Positions 27,443 through 64,000 of a DNA stretch of 64,000 nt are shown here, one piece after another. The position numbers and the translations under genes were made by a program. Under the pieces are notes generated by a model, which saw only the letters and a list, made by a program, of their open reading frames with translations, was not told where the DNA came from and made no database searches. The stretch is from positions 640,001 to 704,000 of the forward strand of contig CAVTUQ010000002.1 in NCBI GenBank assembly GCA_963737905.1, written 5' to 3'. This DNA comes from an uncultured delta proteobacterium (lineage in GTDB: Bacteria; Desulfobacterota; Binatia; UBA9968). Each line of letters starts with the position of its first letter. Within the stretch, counting starts at the first letter, position 1.

Positions 27443-27511
27443 TCCTTCCTCCTTTCCAGCGAATCTGGCCTACCACTCCTCTGTCCTCATCCTCTCCGAG
27501 CGGCCTATCGC

Positions 27512-28303
27512 TTAATGACCTGGTTGATGTGATTCGTGTCCGTGTGCTTCATCATGTCCACTAACAGCCAAAGCGACGTAGATCATGCTCAAAACCATGA
27601 AGACAAACGCCTGTATTAGCGATACGAGAGTTCCCATAACGTAAAAGGCAACCGGTATGACAAGTTTCGTCAGCCCAGTGAAGGCACCAATGACTTCGTG
27701 GTCTCCCATTATATTGCCAAACAGACGCAAAGAGAGCGAAACCGGCCTAAATCCGTTGGAGAACAGCTCTATGATTAAGAAAAATATGACTGAGATCAGC
27801 AGGACCGGCAGGAATGCCAGCTTTGAGAGGAATCCCTTTCCCGGGAGATAGGTCATAGGCCCTATGAACTGCTTGAAATAGGCCATTCCCTGCTCGCGCA
27901 CTCCGATGAGGTTATAGCCAACGAAGGACACCAGCGCTAGGCCCAAAGTCGTGTTGAGGTTACCCGTGGGTGACCCGAATCCGGGTAGAAGCCCCATCAG
28001 ATTGCTAAAGAGGATGAAGAAAAAGAAACTCGCAAAGTACGGCACATACTTCCGCCCGCCCTTTCCGATGATAGCGTCACTTTGGCGTACGATTACATAC
28101 TCAAGCAACAATTCGACGATATTGCGTGCCCCTAGTTTTTCCTCGGGTACCGTGGGATCCTGGGCTCGCGCTAGCTGAGAGCGCGCACGTAAAGCAAAGA
28201 AAATAAGCAACACGGTTGCCAGGAGAGCGAAAAACGTGTGCTCTTGAAACGCTGCCTGCAACTCATGTGGCAGGAGATAGTACCAAGTGAATCCGTGCTC
28301 CAT
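27512..28303 (-). CDS. atpB: ATP synthase F0 subunit a
   Basis: NLMGLLPG, PTGNLNTT, RPVSLSLRLFGN, IQAFVFMVLSMIY. Confidence 0.95.
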   Translation of the reverse strand: MEHGFTWYYLLPHELQAAFQEHTFFALLATVLLIFFALRARSQLARAQDPTVPEEKLGARNIVELLLEYVIVRQSDAIIGKGGRKYVPYFASFFFFILFSNLMGLLPGFGSPTGNLNTTLGLALVSFVGYNLIGVREQGMAYFKQFIGPMTYLPGKGFLSKLAFLPVLLISVIFFLIIELFSNGFRPVSLSLRLFGNIMGDHEVIGAFTGLTKLVIPVAFYVMGTLVSLIQAFVFMVLSMIYVALAVSGHDEAHGHESHQPGH

Positions 28304-30592: not shown

Positions 30593-30663
30593 TATTGTTC
30601 GTAAGTCTTTGGGAGAGGGTTTCTCCAGCAACGTTTTAATCAGTTAAGAAATTGGTGTTGATC

Positions 30664-32001
30664 ATGGATGCTTTGTGGGAAGGAGCGCTCCCGGAACTTA
30701 GAGAGCAGCTCGGCAAACAAAATTTTGAAGCGTGGATCAAGCCCATCCGTTTTAATGAACAAAAAGGTAACGAAATACGGCTTGATGTTCCAAACAAGTT
30801 CTTTCGCGATTGGCTGACGGATCACTTTATGGCGTCGATCGAGCAAGTATTGAGCTCCATTGCGCGTCACGAAGTAAAGGTCAGCTTGACCGTCAACGAG
30901 AACTTGCAAACTAGAGACGGGCCGTTAAGAGGCGAAAGAAAGATCGATCGGGAGCATGACAGGCCGCCACGTACAAGCAATAACCTCATCGCCAAATACA
31001 CGTTTGAAAATTTTGTTATCGGTGCAAGCAACCAATTTGCCCACGCTGCTTCAATGGCAGTGGCTAACCAACCGGGCGAGCATTACAACCCTCTTTTCAT
31101 TTATGGTGGAGTTGGGCTGGGAAAAACTCACCTGGTTAATGCTATTGGTCACCGGGCTAGTGCTAGACGTCCAAGCCTGAAGGTTGTTTATCTGAGTTCT
31201 GAATCATTCATGAACGAGCTTATCGGCTCACTCAGAAGAGATAAGATGGATGAGTTCAAAACGAAATTCAGAAATGTCGACCTGCTTATTTTGGATGACG
31301 TCCAATTTATTGCCGGGAAGGAGAGAACCCAGGAAGAGTTCTTTCACACCTTCAACTCTCTCTATGAGTCCCACAAGCAGATCGTCATCACCTCGGATAA
31401 GTTTCCCAAAGAGATTCCAGGGTTAGAAGATCGACTGCGGAATCGATTTGAATGGGGGCTGATAGCGGACATTCAGCCACCGGATGTGGAAACGAGAGTC
31501 GCAATTCTGCAGAAAAAGGCCGAGACCGAAGCTGTTCAGCTGCCCCACGACGTTGCCATTTTCTTAGCCGCTAATATCGACTCTAACGTCAGGGAGTTGG
31601 AAGGTTCTCTTACTCGCTTGGGTGCCTTCGCGTCATTGACAAAATCAATCATTACCGTCGATCTTGCAAAAGAGGTCCTACGAAATACATTAAAGGGAGC
31701 ACAACGGGAAGTCACTGTCGAAGGTATTCAAAAAACGATCTGTGATTACTACAACATAAAGCTAGGCGACCTGAAGGCGAAAAGGCGTACCAAAAACATA
31801 GCCTTCCCTAGGCAAGTGGCAATGTATCTATGTCGCAAGTATACTGAGACGTCTTTCCCGGCAATCGGCGACAAATTCGGGGGCCGCGATCATTCCACCG
31901 TAATCCACGCCTCCAAAACCATTGAGAAAAAGATAAAAGAAGACCCCTACATGCAAACAACCATCGAGAAGCTCGAGAGAAACCTTAACGTCAAGAAATA
32001 G
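30664..32001 (+). CDS. dnaA: Chromosomal replication initiator DnaA
   Basis: YTFENFVIG, YNPLFIYGGVGLGKTHL, LDDVQF, SNVRELEG, FGGRDHSTVIHA. Confidence 0.98.
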   Translation: MDALWEGALPELREQLGKQNFEAWIKPIRFNEQKGNEIRLDVPNKFFRDWLTDHFMASIEQVLSSIARHEVKVSLTVNENLQTRDGPLRGERKIDREHDRPPRTSNNLIAKYTFENFVIGASNQFAHAASMAVANQPGEHYNPLFIYGGVGLGKTHLVNAIGHRASARRPSLKVVYLSSESFMNELIGSLRRDKMDEFKTKFRNVDLLILDDVQFIAGKERTQEEFFHTFNSLYESHKQIVITSDKFPKEIPGLEDRLRNRFEWGLIADIQPPDVETRVAILQKKAETEAVQLPHDVAIFLAANIDSNVRELEGSLTRLGAFASLTKSIITVDLAKEVLRNTLKGAQREVTVEGIQKTICDYYNIKLGDLKAKRRTKNIAFPRQVAMYLCRKYTETSFPAIGDKFGGRDHSTVIHASKTIEKKIKEDPYMQTTIEKLERNLNVKK

Positions 32002-32221
32002 CTGTGGATATCCTGTGGCCATTTATGGCATTCTAAGTGGGCAACGTGGTTGCTAGAGCGGCCTTGACGGTCTTAGTCGCGATACCGGGAAAAAACATCG
32101 GTGTAAGCCACAGGCAAGATTATTGAAATTTCAGCGCAATATCGACTTTTCCCGTTTATCCACAGCCTCTACTAGTACTTCTTAATTACTTTATATTATA
32201 TAGTTATAGGTAGGAGGTAGT
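32002..32221. other. Replication origin unwinding region (oriC between dnaA and dnaN)
   Basis: DnaA boxes TGTGGATAT (32003-32011) and TTATCCACA (32156-32164), then GCC, the trio-like tract TCTACTAGTACTTCT and an AT-rich stretch. Confidence 0.85.
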
Positions 32222-33328
32222 ATGGAAATTAAAGCTAAGCGAGGAGATCTTCTCGCCACGCTTTATTGGACGCAAAGCATTGTCGAGCGTCGAAATACAA
32301 TGCCTATCTTGGCAAATGTCCTGATAGAAGCTCAAAAGAACGATATCCGTATTACGGCTACTGACCTAGAAGTTGGCGTCAGAGGCCGAGTCGATGGTGA
32401 AGTCATAAAAGAGGGAACGGTCACCGTAAACGCAAAGAAGCTTTATGAGATCATTCGAGAAGTACCGAACGAGCAAGTCCAATTGAAACGACTGGAAAAT
32501 GAATGGGTAGAGATCCGGAGCGGTAAATCGGTATTCAAAATTGTTGGAATGGAGGCACGAGAGTTTCCACAATTCCCTAAGTTTGATAGCAAAGGACTAT
32601 CAACGACTCCCGCATCCACCCTGCGCGAGATGATAGAGCGAACCATTTTTTCCGTCTCAACAGATGAGACCCGTTACAGTCTGAACGGTGTCTTTGTTGA
32701 AGAGAGCGAGAAGGGGAAAGTGAGAATGGTGGCAACGGATGGCCATCGTCTAGCTTTTGATGAGCGGAATTTGAGCTCGTTGGGGTTGACCAAAGGGGTG
32801 ATCTTGCCACGCAAAGGGCTGGCTGAGCTTAAAAAACTCCTTGAAACTGGTGAAGATGGAGTGGTTTCCATGGGTTTTAAGGAAAACATGGGATTGGCTA
32901 TCAAAGACAACGTAGAGCTATTTATGCGGCTCATTGAGGGCGACTTTCCCGATTATACAAAAGTGATCCCGAAGGGGAACCCTAACACCGTAAAGATCGT
33001 GCACAACGAGTTTTTGCAAGCGATACGCCGGGTGTCGATTTTGTCCAGTGAGCGCTACAAAGGAATCAAGCTCGAATTTAACGAAGACAAGGTTTCAATA
33101 TCTGCGAATAATCCTGATTTGGGAGAAGCGGTGGAAGAGCTGGAGGCAGAATACAAGGGGAAATCGGTGGCTATTGGATTTAATGCGCGTTATCTAATTG
33201 ACGTGCTTGGGGTCTTGGGAGGGGATGGGGATATCGAGATCGAGTTGAAGGATGAGCTGAGTCCGAGCATCATTCGTAAAGCTGGAGACGACGGCTATAT
33301 TTACGTGCTGATGCCTATGCGTCTTTAA
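32222..33328 (+). CDS. dnaN: DNA polymerase III beta sliding clamp
   Basis: ATDLEVG, TRYSLNGV, VATDGHRL, GDFPDY, GFNARYL, VLMPMRL. Confidence 0.98.
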   Translation: MEIKAKRGDLLATLYWTQSIVERRNTMPILANVLIEAQKNDIRITATDLEVGVRGRVDGEVIKEGTVTVNAKKLYEIIREVPNEQVQLKRLENEWVEIRSGKSVFKIVGMEAREFPQFPKFDSKGLSTTPASTLREMIERTIFSVSTDETRYSLNGVFVEESEKGKVRMVATDGHRLAFDERNLSSLGLTKGVILPRKGLAELKKLLETGEDGVVSMGFKENMGLAIKDNVELFMRLIEGDFPDYTKVIPKGNPNTVKIVHNEFLQAIRRVSILSSERYKGIKLEFNEDKVSISANNPDLGEAVEELEAEYKGKSVAIGFNARYLIDVLGVLGGDGDIEIELKDELSPSIIRKAGDDGYIYVLMPMRL

Positions 33329-49464: not shown

Positions 49465-50064
49465 CTAATAGCTCCCGCGTGAGATGATCACTTCCTGAAG
49501 CACCACTTCCTTAATCGGCCGGTCACGAAAATCCCGTGGCACGTTGGCGATGGCATCGACGACGTTTTGGCCTCTGACGACTTCGCCGAATACGCTGTGT
49601 TTACTGTCGAGCCATGGTGTTGCTTTCTGAATGATGAAGAATTGACTACCGTTCGTATTGGGCCCCGCGTTAGCCATGGACAAGATGCCAGGTTTGGAGT
49701 GCTTAAGATCGGGATTGAATTCGTCTTCGAAGCGATATCCAGGACCGCCGGTGCCGTTGCCCAACGGATCGCCGCCCTGGATCATAAATCCCGGGATGAC
49801 GCGATGAAAAATTGTGCCGTTGTAGAGCGGCCGCTTCACTTTCGCTGCTGTCTTCGGGTCGGTCCATTCCTTAGTGCCCGACGCTAGATCGACGAAGTTG
49901 GCGACCGTCTTCGGCGCCTTGTCCTCAAATAGTTGGATCACGATGTCGCCCATACTGGTTTTCAACGTGGCGTAAAGCGGCCCTTTCTTATCTTGAGCCT
50001 CGCCGGCGGATGTGCTCGACGTTCCGAGCAACAATAGTGTAATCAACAGCAAGTTTCTAATCAT
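49465..50064 (-). CDS. Cyclophilin-type peptidyl-prolyl isomerase, exported
   Basis: [37 protein letters not shown]; N-terminal signal peptide. Confidence 0.93.
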
Positions 50065-50146
50065 CGTCTCCTCTTTTCTAGTTGCACAACTGCTCCTTCT
50101 TCATTACTCTTGGCAAGTGTCGGATTTTAGCGTGAGGCTCGCTCTT

Positions 50147-50175
50147 TTGACAATGGGTTCCCTGGATGCTATAGA
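50147..50175 (+). promoter_or_regulatory. Putative sigma70 promoter for bactofilin (and possibly the atp genes)
   Basis: TTGACA-N17-TATAGA with an extended -10 TG. Confidence 0.55.
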
Positions 50176-50207
50176 CCAATTTTGTCCCGAGCAAGGGGTC
50201 TCTTGTT

Positions 50208-50753
50208 ATGAATTGGTTTGATCGAAGCCATGTTGGCAAAAAAGAGCCTCAGAAAACTGACAAGAAGCCCGATGTGGTGCAGCCGATTCCCGACCCGGCT
50301 CCAGCTGAAGCCGGACCATCGCTAGCCCTTGCGCCACGCGGGCTCGTTGGCTACCTGTACAAAGGGAGCCGAGTAACGGGTCAATTGACATTTCAGGGTT
50401 CTGCCAGAATAGAGGGCAATGTTGATGGGGAAATCCAGTGTCACGGCACCCTAACGATCGGGGAACGTGCTGAAGTTCGGGCGAAAATTTCCGGCGATGT
50501 TGTCGTTATCCGTGGAAGGGTAGAAGGCAACGTAGTAGCCAAAGAAAAGGTGGAGTTGGTAGCTCCGGCTCGATTGTTTGGTAATATCGATGCCCCCCGA
50601 TTGGTCATCACGGAGGGGGTCGTGTTTGATGGTGACTGCTCCATGGGAGTGGCCAGGCAAAAAGGTGGAATCGCAGGTTCACAGAATCTGAATGCTGACA
50701 AAGCTGCGGCAGCTAAAACGGTGAAGCTGCAACAAGTGGATTTCGAGAAATAG
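50208..50753 (+). CDS. Bactofilin (polymer-forming cytoskeletal protein)
   Basis: Beta-helix repeats GSRVTGQLTFQGSARIEGNVDGEI...GVVFDGDCSM. Confidence 0.88.
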   Translation: MNWFDRSHVGKKEPQKTDKKPDVVQPIPDPAPAEAGPSLALAPRGLVGYLYKGSRVTGQLTFQGSARIEGNVDGEIQCHGTLTIGERAEVRAKISGDVVVIRGRVEGNVVAKEKVELVAPARLFGNIDAPRLVITEGVVFDGDCSMGVARQKGGIAGSQNLNADKAAAAKTVKLQQVDFEK

Positions 50754-50903
50754 ACTTCGTTTCGCGGTTCATTCCATCCCTGCATCCTAAGTTCATAGAT
50801 AGACCGATTGTGAGGGCGGTTTCTTCCAATTGGGCGTTGATTGCTCTTTGCCCGATCGGATTGAAACAAGGACGAAAACGCAGCTGATCTCAAAAATTAG
50901 GCA

Positions 50904-51332
50904 ATGATCTCCCTAGACTATTCTATCGTTTATCAAATCGTTCTTTTTTTGGTCCTTTTTGTCATCCTGAGTAAGGTTCTCTTCCGTCCCTACTTGAACC
51001 TGCTGGAAGAACGCGAACGTAGAACCACGGGAGCCCAGCACGATTCGACGGACTTGGAACATGAAGGGGCTCGATTGCGCGTGCAATACGAAGAGAAAAT
51101 CGCCCAAGGACAGGCAGCGGGCTACGCAGCCAAGGAGGCGATCCGGCAAGAAGCCCACCAGCAACGCGAAAGAGTTTTGACTCAAGCCCGCGAGGAGGCG
51201 ATGGTGATGCTCGAAGGGGTACGGCGGGAAGTGGAGAGCCAGATACAGAAAGAAAAGCAATTCGCCGCAGCTGAGGTCGGAACGATAGCACAGGAGATGG
51301 CGAGCAAGGTCCTCGGGAGGAACGTGGGGTGA
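50904..51332 (+). CDS. atpF2: ATP synthase F0 subunit b'
   Basis: N-terminal TM helix, LFRPYLNLLEERE, coiled coil. Confidence 0.85.
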   Translation: MISLDYSIVYQIVLFLVLFVILSKVLFRPYLNLLEERERRTTGAQHDSTDLEHEGARLRVQYEEKIAQGQAAGYAAKEAIRQEAHQQRERVLTQAREEAMVMLEGVRREVESQIQKEKQFAAAEVGTIAQEMASKVLGRNVG

Positions 51333-51877
51333 GTTTTTTCGAGCTCTTTGGCGTTGCACAAGCATTGGCTTCCACGGCTGAAGCGGAGCACCACGCGCCG
51401 TCTATTCATGAAATCTGGTTCCCGCTCGGTAATTTTCTTATTTTTGCTTTTATCATCATTCGTTACGCGCTGCCGCCAGTCCGTAACTTTCTCCGATCGC
51501 GACGCGACGAAGTCCTAACGACGCTCCAGGAGGCTGCCGCCAAAAAGCAGCAGGCGGAGGCGATGGTCCAAGACTACAAGGGTCGACTGGCACGAGTGGA
51601 ACAGGAGCTTCAGTCCATCGCAGCGTCGCTCCGGGCTGAGGGCGAAAGGGAGAAGGCAAAGCTCCTGAGCGACGCGCAGATTCTCTCCGCCAAGATAAAG
51701 GAGGATGCACGGTTTCTGGCGGATCAAGAAGTCAGAGTGGCGCGGCAAAAAATCCGTGAAGAAATGGCCGCCGAGGCCGAAGCCAGGGCTCGGGAGCTGG
51801 TCCAACACCATCTTTCTTCAACTGATCAGGGGCGCTTGGTCGAAGATTTCATTCAAAGCATCGGACAGGTTACATGA
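51329..51877 (+). CDS. atpF: ATP synthase F0 subunit b
   Basis: NFLIFAFIIIRY...RSRRDEV followed by a coiled coil. Confidence 0.85.
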   Translation: MSFFELFGVAQALASTAEAEHHAPSIHEIWFPLGNFLIFAFIIIRYALPPVRNFLRSRRDEVLTTLQEAAAKKQQAEAMVQDYKGRLARVEQELQSIAASLRAEGEREKAKLLSDAQILSAKIKEDARFLADQEVRVARQKIREEMAAEAEARARELVQHHLSSTDQGRLVEDFIQSIGQVT

Positions 51878-52416
51878 TCGAAGGCGGTTTAAGTCGGAGA
51901 TATACCAAGGCGCTCTTTCAGTTGGCTCGCGAGGCGGGGCAAGAAGAGAAAATCGGCCAGGAGATTGAAAGCTTTCTCGGTGCCTATACAAGCTCAGAGT
52001 TGCAGAAGGTCTTGACCAATCCCGCCTTTGTAATAGACAGCCGCAAGAGAGTCGTCATCGAAGTATCGAACCAGCTGCAACTTTCGATTTTGGCGATTCA
52101 CTTCCTTTTGCTCTTGCTGGAGCGTGATCGACTGACTTATCTTCCCTCGATTGCTACTCGTTACCGTCGCTTGCTGAATGAAAGCAAGGGTCGTGTGGAG
52201 GCCAAAGTTGTCAGCCCTAATTCGCTGGAGCCGGTGATGGTGGATCGGCTACGTGAAGTACTGCATCGAATCTCGGGCAAAGAAATAGTGCTGCAGCAGG
52301 AGACGGACGCCAGCCTCATCGGTGGTGTTCTGGTAGAGTTCGAAGGCAAGGTTTATGACGGCAGTGTGCGGACACAGCTCGCTAATATGAAACAGCGCAT
52401 CGCGCGCGGATACTAA
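51874..52416 (+). CDS. atpH: ATP synthase subunit delta
   Basis: [27 protein letters not shown]. Confidence 0.92.
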
Positions 52417-52430
52417 GGAGCGATCTATTT

Positions 52431-53939
52431 ATGGAGATCGGGACAGCGGAGATTAGCCGGATCATAAAGGAACAGATCCGGGACTACGAAAAGTCGGTTG
52501 AGGTCCAGGAGATCGGGACGGTTCTTTCGACTGGGGATGGCATTGCCCGCGTATACGGGCTGGACAAAGTCGCGGCAGGTGAGCTGTTAGAATTTCCTCA
52601 TGGTATTTTTGGCGTCGCGCTGAACCTCGAAGAGGACAATGTCGGAACCGCTCTCTTCGGCGAAACCCATATGATCAAAGAGGGTGACACCGTCAAGCGC
52701 ACCGGGAGGATTGCTGAGGTGCCTGTAGGCCAGGGATTGATCGGACGCGTGGTCAATGCCTTAGGCGAGGCTATTGACGGCCGTGGCCCCATCGACACGA
52801 AGGATCGCCGCAGGATCGAGATCAAAGCCCCTGGTATCGTCGCACGCCAGCCGGTTAAGGAGCCTCTCCAAACGGGATTGAAGGCTATTGACGGCATGAT
52901 TCCCATCGGTCGCGGGCAGCGGGAATTAATCATCGGCGATCGGCAGACAGGCAAAACCGCGGTGGCCATCGACACGATCATCAACCAAAAAGGCGGCAAT
53001 GTAGTGTGCATCTATGTCGCCATCGGCCAAAAGAGATCGACTGTTGCACAAGTCGTCGATAAACTCCGAGAATCCGGCGCCATGGAGTTTACCATTGTGG
53101 TTGCCGCCACGGCTTCCGAGTCGGCTCCGCTCCAATATATCGCTCCCTATAGCGGTTGCACCATGGGCGAGCACATTCGTGACAATGGCGGCCATGCTCT
53201 CCTGATCTATGACGATCTTTCGAAGCACGCCGTCGCCTATCGTCAGCTTTCTCTGCTGCTGCGTCGGCCGCCCGGACGTGAGGCGTTTCCCGGGGACGTG
53301 TTTTATCTCCACTCTCGGTTGCTGGAACGCGCTGCGAAGATGAGCGATGCCCGCGGCGGCGGATCGCTGACGGCGCTCCCGATCATTGAAACCCAAGCCG
53401 GTGACGTTTCTGCCTACATTCCGACCAACGTGATTTCCATCACCGACGGACAGATCTTTCTGGAAAGCGATCTTTTCTATTCCGGTGTCAGGCCGGCCAT
53501 CAACGTCGGTATATCGGTCTCCCGGGTCGGCGGCAATGCTCAGATCAAGGCGATGAAACAGGTCGCGGGAACCCTACGGCTGGAACTCGCGCAGTATCGT
53601 GAAATGGCGGCCTTCGCGCAATTCGGATCGGACTTGGACCAAGCGACTCAGCGCCAGCTCAATCGGGGTGCTCGTCTCGTCGAGCTATTAAAACAGGGGC
53701 AGTACGAGCCCCTGCCGGTGGAAAAACAGATCCTGATCATCTACGCCGGTACCAACGGTTTCGTTGATGAATTGCCTTTGACGGCACTGAAAAAATATGA
53801 GCAGGAACTTTATTCTTTCGTCGAATCCAGACACCAGGATATTTTCGCGGACATTCTCAAGAAGCGCGAACTGGATAGTGACCTCCGTGCCAAGATGAAC
53901 AAGACGCTGGAGGAGTTCAAAGCGGTTTTTAAACATTAG
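52431..53939 (+). CDS. atpA: ATP synthase subunit alpha
   Basis: [42 protein letters not shown]. Confidence 0.98.
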
Positions 53940-53969
53940 ATTTCAGGGGTTTCTGGTGGATAAGGGATA

Positions 53970-56265
<2,296 letters not shown>

Positions 56266-56289
56266 CGCGGCTGAGGCGAAGTTAGCGAC

Positions 56290-56325
56290 TTGAACTGCTT
56301 GAACGATTTGAACCTTTTGAACGAG
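56290..56325. repeat. Four 9-bp tandem repeats (TTGAAC-N3) between atpD and atpC
   Basis: TTGAACTGC TTGAACGAT TTGAACCTT TTGAACGAG. Confidence 0.8.
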
Positions 56326-56401
56326 AAGCTGACTTTCATTCCAGCCGTCAAAGCATTCAACGGGTTACAGGTGAAACAGCGACGTTTGTGACTGAAAAAA
56401 G

Positions 56402-56818
56402 ATGGCTGACAAAATCAGACTTAGAGTAGTAACGCCGAGCCGGCTTCTGCTCGATGATGTAGTCGATGAGATCACGGCCCCGGGCGCCTTGGGCGAGTTT
56501 GGTGTTTTGCCGAACCATATCGCTTTTCTTACTCTTTTGGTGCCCGGCGAGATGAGCTATAAAGAGGGGACAACCAGGCATTACCTGGCCGTCAGTGGGG
56601 GCTATGCCGAGGTATTGGATAATGTTATGACCGTACTGGCTCCCGCGGCCGAATTTGCAGGCGAGATCGATACAGGTCGCGCACGTCAAGCCAAGGAGTT
56701 TGCTGAAATTAGGATCGGGGAGCTAAACTACGAAGATAAAGAGTTCAAAACCGCCGAAGCAGCGCTTCTTTGGGCGAATGCTCGACTCGATGTCGCTGCT
56801 AGAGAAGCGAGAAAATAG
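56402..56818 (+). CDS. atpC: ATP synthase subunit epsilon
   Basis: LRVVTP, GEFGVLPNH, AVSGGYAEV. Confidence 0.95.
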   Translation: MADKIRLRVVTPSRLLLDDVVDEITAPGALGEFGVLPNHIAFLTLLVPGEMSYKEGTTRHYLAVSGGYAEVLDNVMTVLAPAAEFAGEIDTGRARQAKEFAEIRIGELNYEDKEFKTAEAALLWANARLDVAAREARK

Positions 56819-56832
56819 ATAAAGGAGGTCTT

Positions 56833-57981
56833 ATGGCTAAAGTAGCTCAACCAGAACCCATGAAACAAGAGCCCGTCATTACGATGTGGAGCAAAGAATT
56901 CACCTATGATCGGTGGATGAAAACGAAGGGGATTCCGATTCATACCGGTTATTTTATCCCGGATTTGCGTACCATCGAGCTGGAGTGGTGGGAAGAACGG
57001 GGATGCAAAGCGGCTTTCATCCAACTGCTCGGGCAAGAAGGCGTCAGTGCGTCGCGTGTAACGGAAATTCCCGCCGGCAAATCGCTGCCGCCGGTGAAAT
57101 TTGCTTTGGATGAGATTGTCTATGTTTTATCGGGCCGCGGCCTCACGACGGTTTGGGGTGGAGAAGCCAAACCCAAGAAAAGCTTCGAGTGGCAGGAGCA
57201 TGCTTTATTTCTGGTTCCACGCAATCATTACCACGTTTTCAGCAATATGCAGGGCGACAAGCCCGTCCGGCTGTTCCACTACAGTTATATGCCCATGGCG
57301 ATGTCCGCGCTGCCGGAACCCGACATGTATTTCAATAATCCCTATGAATCAAAAAATGGCGCAACCGAAGGGGATTTTTATTCCGAGGCAAAGATGGTTC
57401 AGGCAGCCGACGCCGATGAAGGTTTGGGTATGCGGGCGTTCTGGTACGGTAATTTCTTTCCGGATATGCGAGCGTGGAACAAGCTGGACGCCAACGAGCG
57501 GCGCGGTGCTGGCGGCAAGAGCGTTTTTATCCAGTTTCCCAATTCAGAACTAACCGCACATATGTCTGTCTTCGCACCGAAAACCTACAAGAAAGCGCAC
57601 CGGCATGGTCCGGGTCGCGCCATCATTATTCCGGCCGGGGAAGGCTATTCGATCATGTGGGAGGAAGGCAAAGAGAAGATCGTGTGCCCGTGGCACGAAT
57701 GCAGCATGGTCACGCCGCCTAACAAATGGTTCCACCAACATTTCAATGCCGGCGGCGACATGGCGCGCTACCTGGCACTCCATCCGCCGATGCAGTTTCA
57801 TGGGCATGCGGAGAAAATCGAAGACCGCGCCAAAGACCAGATCGAATATCCGAACGAGGATCCCTATATTCGTCAGAAGTTCGAAGAGGAGCTGGGGAAG
57901 CGGGGCATCAAGAGCATCATGCCCGCTGAATGCTATACCAATCCGGACTACGAGTGGTCCAAGGCCATGGGGAAGCAATAA
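56833..57981 (+). CDS. Bicupin protein (gentisate-dioxygenase-like fold), paralog 1
   Basis: The N-terminal cupin lacks His ligands (DEIVYVLSGRG). The C-terminal cupin has AHRHGPG...WFHQHFN. Confidence 0.75.
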   Translation: MAKVAQPEPMKQEPVITMWSKEFTYDRWMKTKGIPIHTGYFIPDLRTIELEWWEERGCKAAFIQLLGQEGVSASRVTEIPAGKSLPPVKFALDEIVYVLSGRGLTTVWGGEAKPKKSFEWQEHALFLVPRNHYHVFSNMQGDKPVRLFHYSYMPMAMSALPEPDMYFNNPYESKNGATEGDFYSEAKMVQAADADEGLGMRAFWYGNFFPDMRAWNKLDANERRGAGGKSVFIQFPNSELTAHMSVFAPKTYKKAHRHGPGRAIIIPAGEGYSIMWEEGKEKIVCPWHECSMVTPPNKWFHQHFNAGGDMARYLALHPPMQFHGHAEKIEDRAKDQIEYPNEDPYIRQKFEEELGKRGIKSIMPAECYTNPDYEWSKAMGKQ

Positions 57982-58088
57982 GCGATCAGGCGGCAGCGAT
58001 TCCCAAAAGTCAAATGAATGAATCCCCGCCCCGCGCGGGGATTCCTGTTTATAAGGTATAGACAAAAATCCATCATTCGAGGAAATGA

Positions 58089-59606
58089 ATGCACGACGAC
58101 ATCTACGATCACGATCATCCGGAGAACTTTGAAATCAAAGAAGGTGAGATTGTAACCGAAATCGAAGGGCTGGAGATGTTCTCGCTCAAAAGCGTGGGCA
58201 TCGATATCGGCTCTTCCACGTCCCATCTGATTTTCTCGCACATCACCTTGCGGCGCCAGGGCGCCTCTCTCTCCGGCAAGTTCAAGGTGACCAATCGTGA
58301 AGTGCTCTATCGCTCCCCGATCATGCTGACGCCCTACTTGTCGGCAACCAAAATCGATACCGACAAGGTGAATCGATTTATCCACAATGCCTACGAAGAC
58401 GCGGGCCTAACGCCGGAAGACGTCGATACCGGGGCAGTCATCATCACTGGCGAAGCGCTGAAGAAAGAAAACGCGCAGCCGATTGTCGAATTCTTCGCCA
58501 AGTACTCGGGAAAATTCATTTGCGCGGCTGCGGGTCACAACCACGAGGCGCTGCTCGCGGCCTACGGCTGCGGCGCGGTGGATCTCTCCAAGTCCGAGCA
58601 TAAAACGGTTCTTAATGTGGACATGGGCGGCGGCACGACCAAGTTTTCGCTTATCGAAGACGGCATCGTGAGCCAAACGGCGGCCATCAATATCGGCGCG
58701 CGGCTGATTGCTTTTGACGAAAACGACGTGATCACGCGCGTCGAAGACGCGGGCCGGACAATGATGAAGGAGCTGGGCTATAAAGTAGAGTTGGGCCAGA
58801 AAATCACCGATAAAATGAAGGAGGATTTCGGCGCCTATATGGCGAAGATTCTCTTCGAAGTGATCGAGCAAGGACCTACCTTGCCGATGGCAAACCAGCT
58901 CATGGTGACGCCGCCTTTGGTGAATTACCGCGGTTTAAAACAGGTTCAACATATCGTCTTCTCAGGCGGTGTCTCCGAGCATGTCTATGACCGCGACCCC
59001 AAGGCCTATGGAGATATCGGTCCGGTGCTCGGAAAGAACGTGCGCGCCCATTTACAACATTTCCCGAAGGAAATTCTCCGGGAACCCACTGAAGGTATCC
59101 GCGCCACCGTCATCGGCGCCGGGGAGTACACGATTCAGGCGAGCGGCAACACCAGCTACGTCTCCAATGAGCAGGCGCTGCCGGTCCATGGTCTTAAAGT
59201 TATCCAGGCGTCGGTTCGCGACGGTCAGCCGGTGAGCGATACGTTGAAGCAATCGCTAAGAAAGTTCGACTTGCCGCGTTTCACTTCGGGTCTGGCTTTG
59301 TCTTTGACCGTGAACGGGGTACCGGACTATCAGTCGGTCAAACGGATCGCAGAGGGAATCGCGGAGATTCTCAAAGATGCGGATGATCCAAAGTGCCCAC
59401 TCTATCTCACGTTGGATCTCGATATCGCAAAATCGCTAGGCGGTATGCTGAAGGACGAATTCAAAGTGGCCCGCGACATTATCGCCGTGGACGGCATCGA
59501 AGTCGGCGATTTGGATTACATCGACATCGGTGAATGCCTCGGGATCACGGAAGTCATACCGGTGACCGTAAAATCGCTGATGTTTCCGACGAGTCACGCC
59601 GATTAA
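58089..59606 (+). CDS. eutA: EutA-like (ethanolamine ammonia-lyase reactivase-like) ASKHA ATPase
   Basis: SVGIDIGSSTSHLIFS, YRSPIMLTP, TGAVIITGE, NVDMGGGTTK, FSGGV, IRATVIGAG, DLDYIDIG, PVTVKSL. Confidence 0.8.
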   Translation: MHDDIYDHDHPENFEIKEGEIVTEIEGLEMFSLKSVGIDIGSSTSHLIFSHITLRRQGASLSGKFKVTNREVLYRSPIMLTPYLSATKIDTDKVNRFIHNAYEDAGLTPEDVDTGAVIITGEALKKENAQPIVEFFAKYSGKFICAAAGHNHEALLAAYGCGAVDLSKSEHKTVLNVDMGGGTTKFSLIEDGIVSQTAAINIGARLIAFDENDVITRVEDAGRTMMKELGYKVELGQKITDKMKEDFGAYMAKILFEVIEQGPTLPMANQLMVTPPLVNYRGLKQVQHIVFSGGVSEHVYDRDPKAYGDIGPVLGKNVRAHLQHFPKEILREPTEGIRATVIGAGEYTIQASGNTSYVSNEQALPVHGLKVIQASVRDGQPVSDTLKQSLRKFDLPRFTSGLALSLTVNGVPDYQSVKRIAEGIAEILKDADDPKCPLYLTLDLDIAKSLGGMLKDEFKVARDIIAVDGIEVGDLDYIDIGECLGITEVIPVTVKSLMFPTSHAD

Positions 59607-59629
59607 TTTTGTTGCACACTCAACTCGAT

Positions 59630-59663
59630 GGCGAAGTCCTCGCGCAACGGCGAGGCCTTCGCC
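59630..59663. other. GC-rich stem-loop after the eutA-like gene
   Basis: GGCGAAG-T-CCTCGC...GCGAGG-C-CTTCGCC, with no clear U-tract. Confidence 0.4.
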
Positions 59664-59710
59664 CCCTGCCGCTTACGTCATTCAACATCCTCTCCAAGTG
59701 AAGCTTTTTA

Positions 59711-60571
59711 ATGGCTGAATATTTTTCTTTTCAGGCTGCGCTTTGTTTTTCCATCGCCCATATCATGATCCGCCGCGGCTTGGTCCACTCCAACGCCATG
59801 ACCGGCGCCTTTATCTCGCTATGCATGAGCGCGGGGATTCTTTGGGTTTTGCTGCTATTCGTGATCCCGCTAAGCGCGTTATGGAGTCCGGCTGTCTTCT
59901 ATTTCATTGCCGCCGGTATCTTTGCACCGGGCATCGGCCGGACCTTGAGCTACGTCGGAATCGAACGAATCGGGGTCGCGCGCTCAGTCCCCATTGTCAA
60001 CTCCTCGCCGATCTTCGCATCTCTCTTCGCCGTTATCTTTCTGGGGGAGGTTTGGGTCGGCCAAAATATCATCGGCACAACATTGGTCATTTCCGGTGTC
60101 GTGATACTCTCCATGATCAAACCGGCGCAGGGCTCTTGGCGAAAAAGAGATGTCATTTATCCCGTCGTTGGAGCCGTCGCCTTTGGTATATCGGCGACTC
60201 TTCGGAAAGCGGGTCTAGATGTGGTGACGATCCCGGTACTTGCAGCCGCAGTTACGGCCGGAATGGCGGCGTTGTTTTCTTTTGTTCTTCTACAATTCCA
60301 AACCGGGCAGCAAGCATTCAAGCTCACACGAAAAAGCGCCGTTTGGCTAATTCCCGCCGGATTCATCAACACGGCGGCGATGTTGTCGGTCTTTTACGCA
60401 TTGAGCTTCGGCAAAGTCGTGATTGTCGAGCCGCTGGTCAGTTCCAATCCGGTGCTCACCTTGCTTTTAACGGCGATATTTCTCAGAGACCTCGAAGCGC
60501 TTTCTTTCCGCGTTATCATAGGTGCAGTGTTGACGGTGGCGGGAACCATTCTGGTCGTCACGGTAAAATAG
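59711..60571 (+). CDS. DMT/EamA family transporter
   Basis: Hydrophobic protein with duplicated EamA halves: SSPIFASLFAVIFLGE and SNPVLTLLLTAIFL. Confidence 0.85.
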   Translation: MAEYFSFQAALCFSIAHIMIRRGLVHSNAMTGAFISLCMSAGILWVLLLFVIPLSALWSPAVFYFIAAGIFAPGIGRTLSYVGIERIGVARSVPIVNSSPIFASLFAVIFLGEVWVGQNIIGTTLVISGVVILSMIKPAQGSWRKRDVIYPVVGAVAFGISATLRKAGLDVVTIPVLAAAVTAGMAALFSFVLLQFQTGQQAFKLTRKSAVWLIPAGFINTAAMLSVFYALSFGKVVIVEPLVSSNPVLTLLLTAIFLRDLEALSFRVIIGAVLTVAGTILVVTVK

Positions 60572-60634
60572 GGTCATTCTTTTCGCAATTTGATGATGAT
60601 ATGAGTGATGGATCGTGTAGGAGGTCTGGCTGTA

Positions 60635-61768
60635 ATGTCTAAGGCGATGCAAGCAGAACGGAAAATGTGGAGCAAGCATTATACCTATGATGAGTGGATG
60701 GAGGCTCAAGGGATTCCCATTTATCGGGGCTATTACATCGAGGATTTGCGAACATTGCAGCTCGGTTGGTGGGACGCGCGTCAGTGCAGCTCTGCGTTTA
60801 TCCAGTTGGTGGGCCAAGAGGGAGTCACCTCGGCGCGTGTGACCGAGATTTCCCCCGGCAAAACGCTGCCGCCGCTCAAGTTCGCTTTGGATGAAATTGT
60901 TTATGTGGTCGAAGGACGGGGACTCACCACGATTTGGGCAGGTGAGAAACGTCCGAAGAAAACTTTCGAATGGCAGAAGCACAGCATGTTTCTCGTGCCC
61001 CATAACTACGCGCACCAGTTCAGCAACATGCAGGGCGATAAGCCGGCGCGGTTGCTGCACTACAACTACATGCCGCTCACCTTGTCCGGCGTGCGCGACG
61101 TGAACTTTGTTTTTGGCAATTCCTATGAAGGTCCCGACATCCAGAACGAGTTAGATTTTTATTCCGAAGCCAAGATGATTGAGCAAAGCACTCTGGATAG
61201 CGCATGGGGCCGAAGGGCCTACTGGTACGGCAACTTCTTTCCTGACATGCGAGCCTGGGACAAGCTGGACGCAAATGTGCGGCGGGGCGCCGGTGGTCGC
61301 AGCGTGTACATTCAGTTTCCCGACTCCGAGATGTCCTGCCACATGTCAGTTTTCGATGCGCGCTTATATAAAAAGGCCCATCGCCACGGCCCGGGGAGAG
61401 TCATTGTGATTCCGGTCGGCGAAGGCTACTCGATCATGTGGGAGGAGGGAAAAGAGAAAGTCGTGGTCCCATGGCACGAGGCGAGCTGTTTCGTCCCGCC
61501 CAACAAGTGGTTTCACCAGCATTTCAACGCCGGCGGCGAGCCCGCGCGATATCTTGCGCTGCACCCGCCAATGCAGTTTCACGGCCACGCAGAGAAAGTC
61601 GAAGACCGTGCCAAGGATCAGATCGAGTATGTCAACGAAGATCGATGGGTGCGGGAAAAATTCGAGGCCGAGCTGGCAAAACAAGGACTAACATCCCTCA
61701 TGCCGGAGGCGGCTTACACCGATCCGAGTTTCGACTGGAGTTGGTCCCCGTTTCTACGCGGCAAGTAG
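60635..61768 (+). CDS. Bicupin protein, paralog 2
   Basis: Shares long blocks with 56833-57981, including FWYGNFFPDMRAW (YWYG here), AHRHGPGR and ALHPPMQFHGHAEK.EDRAKDQIEY. Confidence 0.75.
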   Translation: MSKAMQAERKMWSKHYTYDEWMEAQGIPIYRGYYIEDLRTLQLGWWDARQCSSAFIQLVGQEGVTSARVTEISPGKTLPPLKFALDEIVYVVEGRGLTTIWAGEKRPKKTFEWQKHSMFLVPHNYAHQFSNMQGDKPARLLHYNYMPLTLSGVRDVNFVFGNSYEGPDIQNELDFYSEAKMIEQSTLDSAWGRRAYWYGNFFPDMRAWDKLDANVRRGAGGRSVYIQFPDSEMSCHMSVFDARLYKKAHRHGPGRVIVIPVGEGYSIMWEEGKEKVVVPWHEASCFVPPNKWFHQHFNAGGEPARYLALHPPMQFHGHAEKVEDRAKDQIEYVNEDRWVREKFEAELAKQGLTSLMPEAAYTDPSFDWSWSPFLRGK

Positions 61769-61901: not shown

Positions 61902-62807
61902 TCAGGACTTGAGATTCGGTAAGACCTTTTCGCCGAAGAGATCTAGCTGCGTCGGATCAGGATCGGCCAGGCCGATGATCAGGGTGTCGAGTCCTCTGGA
62001 CAAAAAGGCTTCGATACGGTCCGCGACGGCGACGGGGGAACCAACAAGGGACGTGCTTGCGACGTCTCCTCGAAGCCGACCGTAATAGCGCGTGACGTAG
62101 CTGTTTAAGGTTTCCACCGCTGCGGTCGTATTATCGTTGATGACCATGAAAGTGAGGCCGGCTTTTTCGATCTCGGCAGGATTCCGTCCGGCTGCGCGCG
62201 CATACTGGGCGATTTTCTCCCAGGTGGTAGGGAATTCGGGAATCGCCGAGCTGCCGCAGATGAAGCCGTTGGCCCAGGTACCGGCGCGTTTGAGGGAGAT
62301 TTCTGCGCTGCCGCCGGTGAAGATCGGAATCGGCTTCTGGATCGGCCGTGGCCCAAGCGTGAGATTTTGCAAATTAAAGAATCTACCTTTGTGTGTAACA
62401 TTTTCCTCGGTCCAGAGGCGTTTCATCAACTGAACGCACTCCACCGCCCTGCTGCCTCTTCCTTCGAAGGGAACTTCGACGGCGGTGAAATCATTTTCGC
62501 GGCTACCGAAGCCAATCCCAACGGTAACCCGCCCGTTTGAAATGAAATCGAGGCTTGCCACGATCTTGGCGAGCAGCGCGGGGTGACGCAGACCCGGCAA
62601 AAGTACGGAAGTGCCGATCCTGATCTTTTGAGTCGCGCCGGCGGCGGCGGCAAGAATAGTCAAAGGCTCGAGGTTATCGTAGGCGATGCGATCAATGGTC
62701 CACATGGAATGTAGACCCATCGCTTCGCATTTCCTGGCGAAGTTCACAACGTTTTGCGGCTTGGTTAACGGCGCGGGGTTGACGAAGCATAGGCCGATGT
62801 TTGCCAT
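61902..62807 (-). CDS. LLM-class flavin/F420-dependent oxidoreductase
   Basis: EPLTILAAAAGATQKIRIGTSVL, HPALLAK, SLDFISNGRVTVGIGFG, PRPIQKPIPIFTGG. Confidence 0.85.
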   Translation of the reverse strand: MANIGLCFVNPAPLTKPQNVVNFARKCEAMGLHSMWTIDRIAYDNLEPLTILAAAAGATQKIRIGTSVLLPGLRHPALLAKIVASLDFISNGRVTVGIGFGSRENDFTAVEVPFEGRGSRAVECVQLMKRLWTEENVTHKGRFFNLQNLTLGPRPIQKPIPIFTGGSAEISLKRAGTWANGFICGSSAIPEFPTTWEKIAQYARAAGRNPAEIEKAGLTFMVINDNTTAAVETLNSYVTRYYGRLRGDVASTSLVGSPVAVADRIEAFLSRGLDTLIIGLADPDPTQLDLFGEKVLPNLKS

Positions 62808-62863
62808 TGTGGTGTCTCCTTTGGTAAGTAACGTGGCGTGTCAAAATCCGTGGACCGTTCATC

Positions 62864-62966
62864 ATCATTCCGGCCAAGCGAGCGCAAACTCGCGAGAGCG
62901 AAATCCAGTTTCAGGAACGGGGTTCAAACCCGCCCCTACTCAATTCCGTCTGCACGCGAATGACGA
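62864..62966. repeat. Degenerate composite REP-like/palindromic elements
   Basis: TCATTCCGG...AATCCAG and ...ATTCCG...GAATGACG ends flank GGGGTTCAAACCCGCCCCTAC, which resembles half of a GTAG-family REP. Confidence 0.45.
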
Positions 62967-63113
62967 AGAGTGAGCGTCGCATTTTCAACAGTTATTTAAT
63001 GCAAAGCCTCAGCGCTGTGTTTGTTTGGGCCACGATAGTCCGGCAGCCACCCCTTTTCAAGGTTTAATGTCTGAGATATACCGGACAACATACAAACTAA
63101 GGAGGACACAGAA

Positions 63114-63548
63114 ATGGAAGCTTCTACATTCAAGCTCAAAACGCCACATATCACCGGCGGGCGCAGCCATATTCCCCTAGCAGCCACGGAAAATATGTCG
63201 GTGGGGCTGAATTACTACACGCAGGGACGGAAGAACAAACTGCACACCCATCCCGGGGAAGACCATACTTTTGTGGTTATGGAAGGCCAAGCGACCTTTT
63301 ACAACAAAGAGCATGAGCCCACCGTGCTTAATAAAGGCGAAGGGATCATGCTGCCGGAAAACCATTACTACTATTTTCAAAACACGGGTGACGGGCCATT
63401 GGCTCTCTTTCGGGTGAGCGCGAAAAAGGGCAATAAACCAAAGGTGGTGCGCGTCGACACCGAAGGCAACCGGAGAACGGAAGAAGAAAACGAGTTTATT
63501 GTCGTCGATGGAACAACCGTAGAGGGAAAATTCTGGGAGCTGGCGTAG
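63114..63548 (+). CDS. Monocupin protein
   Basis: LHTHPGEDHTFVVMEG...LPENHYYYFQN; strong AAGGAGG ribosome-binding site. Confidence 0.8.
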   Translation: MEASTFKLKTPHITGGRSHIPLAATENMSVGLNYYTQGRKNKLHTHPGEDHTFVVMEGQATFYNKEHEPTVLNKGEGIMLPENHYYYFQNTGDGPLALFRVSAKKGNKPKVVRVDTEGNRRTEEENEFIVVDGTTVEGKFWELA

Positions 63549-63556
63549 TGCGTCGA

Positions 63557-64000
63557 ATGAAGATCACAGACGTCAAGGCGATTCGGTTGCGCGCGACGAT
63601 TCCCACGGAAGGACAGGTTTTCAGCCGGTCGGGCGTGAGAAACTTTCGGTCGGCGACGCTGGTTCAAATCGAAACCGATGAGGGAATCACCGGTCTCGGC
63701 TCCTGCTCGGGCAACGGCGAGCTGATCGAAGTGATCGTTGGCAAGGTGCTAAAGCCGCTATTGATCGGGATGGATCCGACTGAGATCGATGAGATCTGGG
63801 ACAAAGCCTATGTGAGAGGCGGCCATAAGGAGTTTGGGACGCGTGGGATCGGTGTCGTTGCGTTGAGCGGAATCGACATCGCGCTTTGGGATATCCTCGG
63901 TAAGGTTCGCGGTGTTCCTATCTATCAACTTTTAGGTGGCAGGTGGCGTGACAGAGTACCGGTCTACGCAACGGCTCTCTACCCGGAAGAGCCGTCGAAA
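63557..64000 (+). CDS. Mandelate racemase/muconate lactonizing (enolase superfamily) enzyme, truncated by the window end
   Basis: Hand translation: MKITDVKAIRL...VQIETDEGITGLG...ALSGIDIALWDILGKVRGVPIYQLLGG...VPVYA. Confidence 0.88.
   Translation, partial: MKITDVKAIRLRATIPTEGQVFSRSGVRNFRSATLVQIETDEGITGLGSCSGNGELIEVIVGKVLKPLLIGMDPTEIDEIWDKAYVRGGHKEFGTRGIGVVALSGIDIALWDILGKVRGVPIYQLLGGRWRDRVPVYATALYPEEPSK

Follow-up and report, generated by a model that had tools for sequence, protein, structure and literature searches.

A stretch of 64,000 nucleotides from the genome of an uncultured delta proteobacterium of the Binatia (contig CAVTUQ010000002.1, positions 640,001 to 704,000; referred to here as the window) carries a gene for a EutA-like ATPase of 505 amino acids, flanked by genes for two paralogous bicupins, that is, cupin proteins with two barrels. 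The ATPase is not a reactivase of ethanolamine ammonia-lyase; it is a member of a large, uncharacterised branch of the EutA family that is linked to bicupins. By analogy with EutA, we propose that it may act as an ATP-dependent factor for loading, exchange or repair of the metal in the three-histidine site of the bicupin, a reading to which we assign a probability of about 50%. EutA itself is described, in PMC5821096, as the ATP-dependent reactivating factor of the adenosylcobalamin-dependent ethanolamine ammonia-lyase; we propose that this reactivase family has been turned to a new class of client. The genes lie in the order given in the original prediction (bicupin, EutA-like ATPase, DMT transporter, bicupin paralogue), all on the + strand, and the features of the cluster are as follows.

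56833-57981, + strand: bicupin 1, 382 amino acids, from open reading frame (ORF) calls
58020-58044, + strand: terminator-like hairpin between the bicupin 1 and ATPase genes, 10 pairs, 7 of them G-C
58089-59606, + strand: EutA-family ASKHA ATPase, 505 amino acids, from ORF calls and Pfam EutA
58089-58184, + strand: His/Asp-rich N-terminal tail of the ATPase, residues 1-32, MHDDIYDHDHPE...
59711-60571, + strand: EamA/DMT-family transporter, 286 amino acids, from Pfam EamA
60605-61768, + strand: bicupin 2, paralogue of bicupin 1, 387 amino acids, from ORF calls

The motifs quoted in the same prediction (GIDIGSSTS, VDMGGGTT and the N-terminus MHDDIYDHDHPE) were all found in the translations, and the single intact metal site that it assigned to each bicupin is present in both (KKAHRHGPG...WFHQHFN). 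Its statement that the window has no eutB, eutC, microcompartment shell or B12 gene holds for the 49 window ORFs scanned with Pfam (7 ORFs at the cluster and 42 upstream ORFs of at least 100 amino acids), among which no eut, microcompartment or B12 gene was found; the ORFs at 49465-56818, outside the scanned set, encode ATP synthase subunits, a peptidyl-prolyl isomerase and a small protein, to judge by their translations.

A bicupin-linked branch of the EutA family

The ATPase matches the Pfam EutA model (PF06277) with E = 2.2e-121 and 406.5 bits (cut-off 27), residues 33-499 covering model positions 3-474 of 475. It falls below all four NCBIfam cut-offs for EutA equivalogs (NF007991-NF007994; 352.7 versus 598, 267.9 versus 769, 242.1 versus 952 and 226.6 versus 799 bits), and its identity to E. 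coli EutA (b2451) is 33% (BLASTP, 224 bits; residues 33-501 aligned to 6-467). The ATP-binding elements are intact, including phosphate-1 (GIDIGSSTS), phosphate-2 (VDMGGGTT) and the adenosine motif (FSGGVSE), and the ATP-binding residues D178, G180-T183, G293, G294 and E153 are invariant across 58 sequences. The family is large, with 774 clusters at 50% identity (E ≤ 1e-30); its best 150 clusters score at least 283 bits in phmmer against the 224 bits of E. coli EutA in BLASTP, a rough comparison because the programs differ.

The AlphaFold2 model of the ATPase (mean predicted local distance difference test (pLDDT) 82.3) was compared with solved structures using VIA. The matches were to Ppx/GppA (3cer_A; Z 19.0, root-mean-square deviation (rmsd) 4.1, 261 residues aligned), a diol dehydratase reactivase (2d0o_A; Z 15.7, rmsd 4.3, 250 aligned), a benzoyl-CoA-reductase subunit (9gai_C; Z 15.6, rmsd 3.9, 233 aligned), an HgdC-type activator (4eht_A; Z 15.4, rmsd 4.5, 236 aligned) and RACo (3zyy_X; Z 13.6, rmsd 6.0, 257 aligned). 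For this predicted model, these matches are generic ASKHA folds. A sequence search of the PDB with the ATPase returned no EutA-family structure, and its top match arose by chance (E = 0.0024). The Pfam BcrAD_BadFG match is marginal (32.4 bits versus a cut-off of 31.5, residues 36-150 only). We considered and rejected an HgdC-like Fe-S activator: activators of this type require two cysteines per monomer, and Cys145, present in 57 of 58 relatives, is the sole cysteine among the invariant or nearly invariant residues of the ATPase.

We constructed a phylogenetic tree of 86 ATPase rows (quick IQ-TREE run, LG+G4), rooted on the long branch (2.17) of E. coli EutA, the sole canonical row. All sampled proteins but one form a single clade (Shimodaira–Hasegawa-like approximate likelihood-ratio test (SH-aLRT) 99). 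This separate clade, together with the 33% identity and the scores below the equivalog cut-offs, bears out the expectation that the protein would not group with canonical EutA. Rows with an adjacent bicupin occur on the basal branches and throughout the 42-row clade of the window; the simplest reading of their basal position is therefore an ancestral pairing with a few losses.

The host genome (6.7 Mb, 87.49% complete, 6.69% contamination) has no match to EutB, EutC or a bacterial microcompartment (BMC) shell domain in a genome-wide profile search in which the E. coli control matched; given this completeness and contamination, their absence is not proven. The possibility raised at the outset that eutBC lies elsewhere in the genome thus found no support, and EutB is also missing from all 27 other genomes that carry the branch (0 of 2 and 0 of 25), several of which are single-chromosome assemblies. 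The genome encodes four EutA paralogues that are mutually 38–44% identical. Three of them (those of the window, C15 and C12) directly follow a bicupin on the same strand, and the C45 copy does not. The genome has 19 bicupin ORFs of the window family (one of them a fragment) and about 12 of a second, gentisate-dioxygenase-like type, and the adjacency of EutA-like genes and bicupins exceeds what this abundance alone explains. The C12 pair (G000:C12:107366-113635) consists of a bicupin with two intact HRH...H sites and a EutA-like gene, and is flanked by three paralogous proteins of approximately 235–258 amino acids.

To place the pairing across genomes, we collected related loci as the best 80 of 579 relatives, using the four-paralogue alignment as the query and one genome per species. 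Most loci are from metagenome-assembled genomes of Binatia and ‘Deltaproteobacteria’ and from Chloroflexota/Dehalococcoidia; Rhodospirillales, Armatimonadota and other groups contribute one locus each. A search of the host's own phylum had found the EutA-like family in just 3 of 151 genomes, too few for neighbourhood statistics. Bicupins were detected with our own ORF calls and hidden Markov models built from the bicupins of the host genome. The ATPase gene is broken in L036 and L040, both of which have an adjoining bicupin and were left out of the tree, and 78 intact loci therefore remain. A bicupin is directly adjacent on the same strand in 40 of these, lies within 3.5 kb in 3 more and is missing from 35. 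When the neighbours of all 80 loci were clustered, the bicupin was the sole widely shared gene (45 of 80 loci; in 39 at position -1 on the same strand). The next clusters reflect lineage synteny, with ATP synthase genes in 19–21 loci and DUF4175, TPR-peptidase and MoxR genes in one clade; these are followed by EamA (12 loci), an LLM oxidoreductase (9) and a xanthine-dehydrogenase-type subunit (7).

We also took a census of 25 genomes from those behind the related loci, which we chose for long contigs and diversity and which, being mutually related, are not independent samples. They yielded 104 PF06277 matches (1–10 per genome) that correspond to 103 genes, one gene being split into two matches, and 533 bicupin matches (1–67 per genome) in about 117 Mb, or one per approximately 220 kb. 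All 103 regions were retrieved with up to 3 kb of flank per side, less at contig ends, so that some genes are partial; adjacency here means a gap of at most 400 nucleotides in our ORF calls. For 58 of the 103 genes, the closest bicupin lies immediately upstream on the same strand, and for 5 it lies immediately downstream, again on the same strand; 2 genes have an adjacent bicupin on the opposite strand, 3 genes adjoin only a weak cupin match, and for 9 the nearest bicupin is 0.4–3 kb away. By our arithmetic, the 63 same-strand adjacencies compare with about one pair expected by chance, an approximately 60-fold excess, which rules out chance adjacency. The cupin linkage, on the conservation of which the earlier proposal had depended, is therefore conserved across genomes, in 40 of 78 loci and 63 of 103 census genes.

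With these counts at hand, we can weigh a canonical role, in which the ATPase reactivates a B12 enzyme encoded at another locus and its cupin neighbours are coincidental. Such a role would be compatible with the full-length Pfam EutA match, with the seven matches to B12-binding domains in the genome (six of them above the cut-off) and with a genome that is 87% complete. However, none of the seven B12-domain genes is near any EutA paralogue, the nearest on the same contig being about 300 kb away, and the scores below the equivalog cut-offs, the lack of EutB, EutC and BMC matches in the genome, the 0 of 27 count for EutB in the others and the roughly 60-fold excess of bicupin adjacency all argue against it. 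Moreover, true fusions of EutB and EutA belong to the distant canonical branch: P0401 and P0402 combine EutB with a canonical-type EutA that is 33% identical to the window ATPase. These proteins show that true client fusion exists in the canonical branch. We consider the canonical role very improbable.

The recurrent families among the census neighbours place the genes in a context of aromatic catabolism. They include an Amidohydro_2 decarboxylase/hydrolase (13 loci), a LigXa-type Rieske oxygenase (5), UbiD (4), dienelactone hydrolase (4) and a ring-hydroxylating oxygenase (3), as well as CoA-transferases, enoyl-CoA hydratases and transporters of the TctABC or Opp type. ATP-binding cassette (ABC) ATPases of the Opp/Dpp type occur in 8 loci and the corresponding permeases in 3, and a cluster in 6 census loci is of the xanthine-dehydrogenase type, a family assigned from its counterpart in the 80-locus set. 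Thousands of such genes are named ‘ethanolamine ammonia-lyase reactivating factor EutA’ in databases. Because they occur, in the genomes studied here, where no such lyase was found, the label is a source of error when pathways are reconstructed for Binatia, Chloroflexota and further uncultured groups, which are thought to degrade recalcitrant organic matter. A full-text literature search, in which few subscription journals were covered, returned no paper that links EutA-family proteins to cupins; the few matches concerned eut microcompartment or ectoine genes.

The bicupins and the histidine-rich tail

The two window bicupins are 64–68% identical to each other and match Pfam weakly (bicupin 1, Cupin_1 26.3 bits with a cut-off of 22 and Cupin_2 27.1 bits with a cut-off of 27.2; bicupin 2, Cupin_2 29.8 bits). 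The AlphaFold2 model of bicupin 1 (mean pLDDT 85.5) is predicted to be a two-barrel cupin nearest to the solved gentisate and salicylate 1,2-dioxygenases. VIA placed gentisate 1,2-dioxygenase first (3bu7_B; Z 21.5, rmsd 4.0, 269 aligned), with salicylate 1,2-dioxygenase (2phd_A; Z 20.1, rmsd 3.6, 259 aligned) and E. coli gentisate dioxygenase (2d40_A; Z 19.3, rmsd 3.6, 246 aligned) also among the matches, and seed globulins and oxalate decarboxylase were within about 3 Z units of these dioxygenases. Foldseek against the PDB, by comparison with the VIA ranking, returned generic bicupins only (TM-score approximately 0.45), and the PDB sequence search gave a marginal match to 3bu7 (E = 0.01). The bicupins do not belong to the curated 5-aminosalicylate 1,2-dioxygenase family of NCBIfam (18.2 and 24.6 bits versus a cut-off of 650), and the corresponding protein atlas clusters are named ‘hypothetical’ or ‘cupin domain’ only.

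In the C-terminal barrel of bicupin 1, the metal site H256-x-H258...H301-x-H303 is retained and is invariant in a 48-sequence alignment (A3), and bicupin 2 has the same intact C-terminal HRH...HQH site. Invariant residues of this barrel in A3 are H243, Y252, K253, K254, H256, H258, W287, H301, H303 and N305; outside this group, R224, Q336 and E338 do not vary either. In both window bicupins, the first two metal histidines of the N-terminal barrel are gone (VKFALDE and LKFALDE), and most bicupin paralogues of the genome keep one histidine and a glutamate there. In the solved gentisate and salicylate dioxygenases, the catalytic iron is in the N-terminal barrel. The window bicupins resemble these enzymes (3bu7, 2phd and 2d40) in their best structural matches and the aromatic-catabolism context, and they carry an H-x-H...H motif, but differ from the solved enzymes in that the intact site is C-terminal, the N-terminal site is degenerate and the sequence similarity is marginal. 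Ring-cleaving dioxygenation is the most likely activity that we infer for the bicupin.

Bicupins beside window-type ATPases form a clade of their own with a long stem (51 rows, SH-aLRT 100), which is consistent with the bicupin and ATPase genes travelling together. Within this clade, orthologues of bicupin 1 (27 rows, SH-aLRT 99) and bicupin 2 (10 rows, SH-aLRT 98) are separate groups. Upstream and downstream bicupins also became paired on at least two further, independent occasions, once in the L021-L025 lineage and once in L039. Of the 44 loci of the window's clade, 16 have a second bicupin; among the 25 whose flanking sequence is long enough, 9 do. A hetero-oligomer of the two paralogues, which had been suggested, can therefore not be a general requirement. 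A third close paralogue (61–66% identical to the window pair) is encoded outside the window at G000:C2:361475-362555; its tblastn match is in two pieces in different frames, and the gene may thus be a frameshifted pseudogene.

The ATPase gene starts at the first possible start codon after a stop, an ATG that gives Met-His-Asp-Asp, with GAGGAA upstream. Residues 1–26 are predicted to be disordered (pLDDT below 50 in the AlphaFold2 model). In E. coli EutA, GIDIG is preceded by 7 residues, none of them histidine, and in the tail-less outlier L087 (genome G140) by 9, again without a histidine; all other sequences that were examined have a stretch rich in His, Asp or Glu before the motif, with 1–7 histidines in 24–60 counted residues. 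In a 58-sequence alignment (A2), H2 is present in 56 sequences, H8 in 39 and H10 in 40, and His46 and Cys145 in 57 each, the exception for Cys145 being the tail-less outlier. E. coli EutA has Gln at the position of His46 and Val at that of Cys145. In 44 of 79 loci, which belong to the window's clade and to basal lineages, the tail opens with M-H-[D/E] and its first codon is ATG; at the same position, 5 more loci have a TTG codon and 1 has GTG, some of which are possible alternative starts.

The outlier L087 (G140:C12:22909-24312) is a basal EutA-family gene that lacks both the His tail and Cys145. Its neighbours are an aldehyde:ferredoxin oxidoreductase and a 4Fe-4S ferredoxin, its genome is without EutB, and it may serve another, non-B12 client.

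The start of the ATPase, MHD at its sole possible start codon, has the form of the N-terminal Met-His-Glu/Asp motif of the HypA type. According to PMC7055735, the N-terminal Met-His-Glu of HypA binds Ni(II), with the N-terminal amine and His2 as ligands. We regard the likeness of the ATPase tail to HypA as a resemblance and not as membership, a lead rather than a proof. HypA, HypB, UreE and SlyD are nickel metallochaperones with His-rich or N-terminal Met-His-Glu sites; the Met-His-Asp/Glu of the ATPase, followed by His-x-His, is like the HypA site, and nucleotide-coupled delivery, as we propose it for the ATPase, would be a further likeness. Unlike HypA, it is an ASKHA protein and neither a zinc-ribbon protein nor a G3E GTPase, and it has no CxxC zinc site; unlike the nickel metallochaperones, it has no hydrogenase or urease context, and in one clade the motif is internal.

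A proposed metal-centre role and its alternatives

We predicted the complex of the ATPase with bicupin 1 by co-folding, and obtained a score of 0.58 (runs of 0.58, 0.62 and 0.57), compared with 0.00 for the best of three controls. At least 55% of contacts are shared between the runs, and the partner pLDDT is at least 79. Of 157 solved complexes, 116 reached the mark used for such scores, as did 2 of 215 mismatched pairs; among those that passed it, a score of 0.60 or below was given by just 18 of the 157 solved complexes, yet by both of the passing mismatches. These calibration counts hold roughly, as the alignments used were our own. The predicted complex gives weak support to binding of bicupin 1 by the ATPase; combined with the prior from gene order, it raises the odds of binding a little and is no proof.

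The mechanism that we propose is as follows. By analogy with EutA, which exchanges the damaged cofactor in EutBC, the ATPase would bind the bicupin and would spend ATP to open it. The flexible N-terminal tail of the ATPase (Met-His-Asp...His-x-His) would carry a metal ion, which would then be delivered to, or exchanged in, the three-histidine site of the C-terminal barrel of the bicupin. In the window, a single candidate helper gene is flanked by the genes for the two paralogous bicupins and the DMT transporter. The suggestion that the EutA fold had been redeployed as an ATP-dependent metal-loading or reactivating partner of cupins has thus fared unevenly: membership of a non-canonical branch and linkage to cupins stand, and the metal mechanism draws on indirect evidence, namely the His tail, the poly-His fusions and the weak co-fold.

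Two established systems help to define the proposal. With EutA, the ATPase shares the family, the domain architecture and the ASKHA ATP motifs, and the proposed logic is the same, a partner opened for cofactor exchange. It departs from EutA in its extra 32-residue His/Asp tail, in Cys145, in its bicupin neighbour and in the fact that eutBC was not found; its family is also multi-copy (1–10 matches per genome). DdrAB (2d0o; the Z 15.7 fold match) is likewise an ASKHA ATPase that repairs a cofactor enzyme by exchange, and DdrA acts with a small beta subunit on B12 enzymes. The PDB sequence search detected no sequence relationship of the ATPase to DdrAB, and no small beta subunit was seen at the window ATPase.

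The longer proteins of the family offer further material on ion handling. No fusion of a cupin and the ATPase is present among the 150 best representatives or 13 longer proteins; the longer proteins instead carry an N-terminal CxxC...HH domain, an ABC permease, a methyltransferase or EutB, and the long form of P0391 is an apparent read-through artefact. In five clusters with 28 members (P0392-P0395 and P0397), a His-tailed EutA-like domain is joined to a double permease of the ABC type, similar to PotBC/FbpB/PhnU2. Between the two, the linker, measured in P0392-P0395, is 64–99 amino acids long and contains 24–30 histidines (29–42% His). Judged from these sequences, a poly-His tether between the ATPase and an importer is hard to explain without metal ions, which suggests ion handling. 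A bicupin is near the permease-fusion genes in 6 of 22 metagenome loci, many of them short; among the permease-fusion loci scanned, L195 and L199 have a solute-binding protein and L193 a TOBE-type ABC ATPase. His-tailed EutA-like proteins could then constitute a new ASKHA class of metallochaperone or reactivase, which in some lineages would be fed ions directly by the fused ABC importer; we hold this extension to be possible, with the balance tilted somewhat against it.

In eight other proteins (P0356, P0372, P0376, P0377, P0383, P0396, P0398 and P0399), an N-terminal domain of about 190 amino acids with CxxC...HH/HC replaces the His-rich tail, and some of these proteins also have a C-terminal extension of about 170 amino acids. 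They apparently come from low-GC lineages, and the domain may be an alternative metal-binding module.

We acknowledge that several observations weigh against a metal-handling helper of bicupins. There is no bicupin within 3 kb of 26 of the 103 census genes, and 26 of the 35 bicupin-less loci fall within one 27-row Binatia clade, which includes the C45 copy of the host; in this clade, the His-Glu-Gly-His motif is internal and mostly follows Leu, Phe or Cys codons. Most bicupins do without a helper, as no more than about 77 of the 533 census bicupins are within 3 kb of a EutA-family gene; in the host genome, approximately 30 bicupins in 6.7 Mb compare with four EutA paralogues. The C-terminal metal motif is alike in helper-linked and stand-alone bicupins, and the site therefore gives no reason why only some bicupins would need a helper. 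The neighbour clusters that were scanned include no nickel/cobalt transporter, NikR or known metallochaperone gene. The fused ABC permease is under every NCBIfam cut-off, so its substrate could be organic and not a metal. The weakness of the co-fold, for which no interface was reported, counts on the same side.

One alternative is that the ATPase is a co-catalytic subunit, forming with the bicupin a single ATP-dependent enzyme that spends ATP at each turnover, for example to activate, carboxylate, decarboxylate or dearomatise an aromatic acid. The tight and conserved order (bicupin directly upstream in 58 of 103 census genes), the intact ATP motifs and the weak co-fold support for binding are as this account would have them, and ASKHA proteins that are catalytic or activating subunits exist, as the fold matches to 9gai_C and 4eht_A recall. 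It is harder to square with the bicupins that stand alone, which are the majority, or with a His-rich tail and poly-His linkers that have no obvious part in substrate chemistry. EutA, the sole family member to have been characterised, works as a reactivase rather than as a catalytic subunit (PMC5821096).

The spacer between the genes bears on the same alternative. The hairpin at 58020-58044 has a GC-rich stem of 10 bp, is followed by a T-rich tract and resembles an intrinsic terminator or attenuator. The stem GGAATCCCCGC...GCGGGGATTCC with its T-tract is present in the window and in 10 of 10 close loci, in which the loops have changed, and in 0 of 7 more distant loci, the spacers of which are mostly short. 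On the evidence of these sequences, the hairpin is probably a partial terminator that keeps the helper ATPase less abundant than the bicupin; unequal amounts of the two proteins, as the conserved hairpin suggests, speak against a joint enzyme. We judge a co-catalytic role to be unlikely.

A second alternative has the ATPase carry no metal and act either as a reductive reactivator, by ATP-coupled electron transfer as in RACo, or as an assembly chaperone resembling Hsp70. Ring-cleaving Fe(II) dioxygenases need reductive rescue, as provided by the ferredoxin XylT for catechol 2,3-dioxygenase, and RACo restores a corrinoid protein by ATP-coupled electron transfer. The likeness to the ASKHA activators RACo (3zyy_X) and HgdC type (4eht_A) favours such a function, and the repeated duplication of bicupins beside the ATPase fits a role in assembly. 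The ATPase, however, has no Fe-S or flavin domain and a single conserved cysteine (Cys145), and its conserved His-rich tail and the poly-His permease fusions point to ion handling. This alternative, too, is improbable, and we rank it just behind shared catalysis.

If the metal-centre role is correct, the branch would be a nucleotide-driven system for the maturation or repair of metal centres, built on a fold that is not known to serve this purpose; most systems known so far use G3E GTPases. It would help to explain how oxygen-sensitive, ring-cleaving cupin dioxygenases stay active, and the principle of cofactor exchange, familiar from the B12 reactivases, would then reach the mononuclear metal enzymes of aromatic catabolism. 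The system is directly testable with two or three cloned genes.

Genomic surroundings of the cluster

The ATP synthase F1 operon at window positions 50904-56818 directly precedes the cluster. The atpC stop and the start of bicupin 1 are separated by 14 nucleotides (56819-56832), with a ribosome-binding site, AAAGGAGG, before the bicupin 1 ATG. A position right behind the atp operon is seen again in 17–21 related Binatia loci; given this recurrent placement, transcription of the cluster may in part be joint with that of ATP synthase. The genes for ATP synthase subunits a and c are apart from the F1 operon (50.9–56.8 kb), at 27113-28303 on the - strand. The window also contains dnaA and dnaN (30652-33328), and is therefore probably near the chromosomal replication origin.

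The transporter gene between the ATPase and bicupin 2 encodes two EamA repeats (PF00892, 86.8 bits in 2 stretches). It is a variable member of the cluster: of the 80 related loci, 12 have an EamA homologue beside the ATPase gene. Downstream of bicupin 2, the window (61902-64000) encodes a convergent F420-type LLM oxidoreductase on the - strand, a single cupin of 144 amino acids and a member of the enolase superfamily (MR/MLE). At least the genes for the LLM oxidoreductase and the small cupin are also downstream in several related loci (L012, L022, L023 and L025), and the LLM, small-cupin and enolase-superfamily genes may share a pathway with the cluster.

Two groups of relatives have surroundings of their own. 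In the bicupin-less clade (G000:C45:862-2484 and loci L049-L083), the EutA-like gene is divergent from an operon of DUF4175, TPR-peptidase and MoxR AAA genes, and in 5 of the 80 related loci a small gene of the metallo-beta-lactamase fold follows the EutA-like gene of this clade. A divergent EutA subfamily, found in L189, L190 and L191 (genomes G154, G151 and G159), scores 187–194 bits with Pfam and has only a weak cupin match upstream. Its neighbours include UbiD-family decarboxylases, which form a four-locus cluster with its representative in L190.

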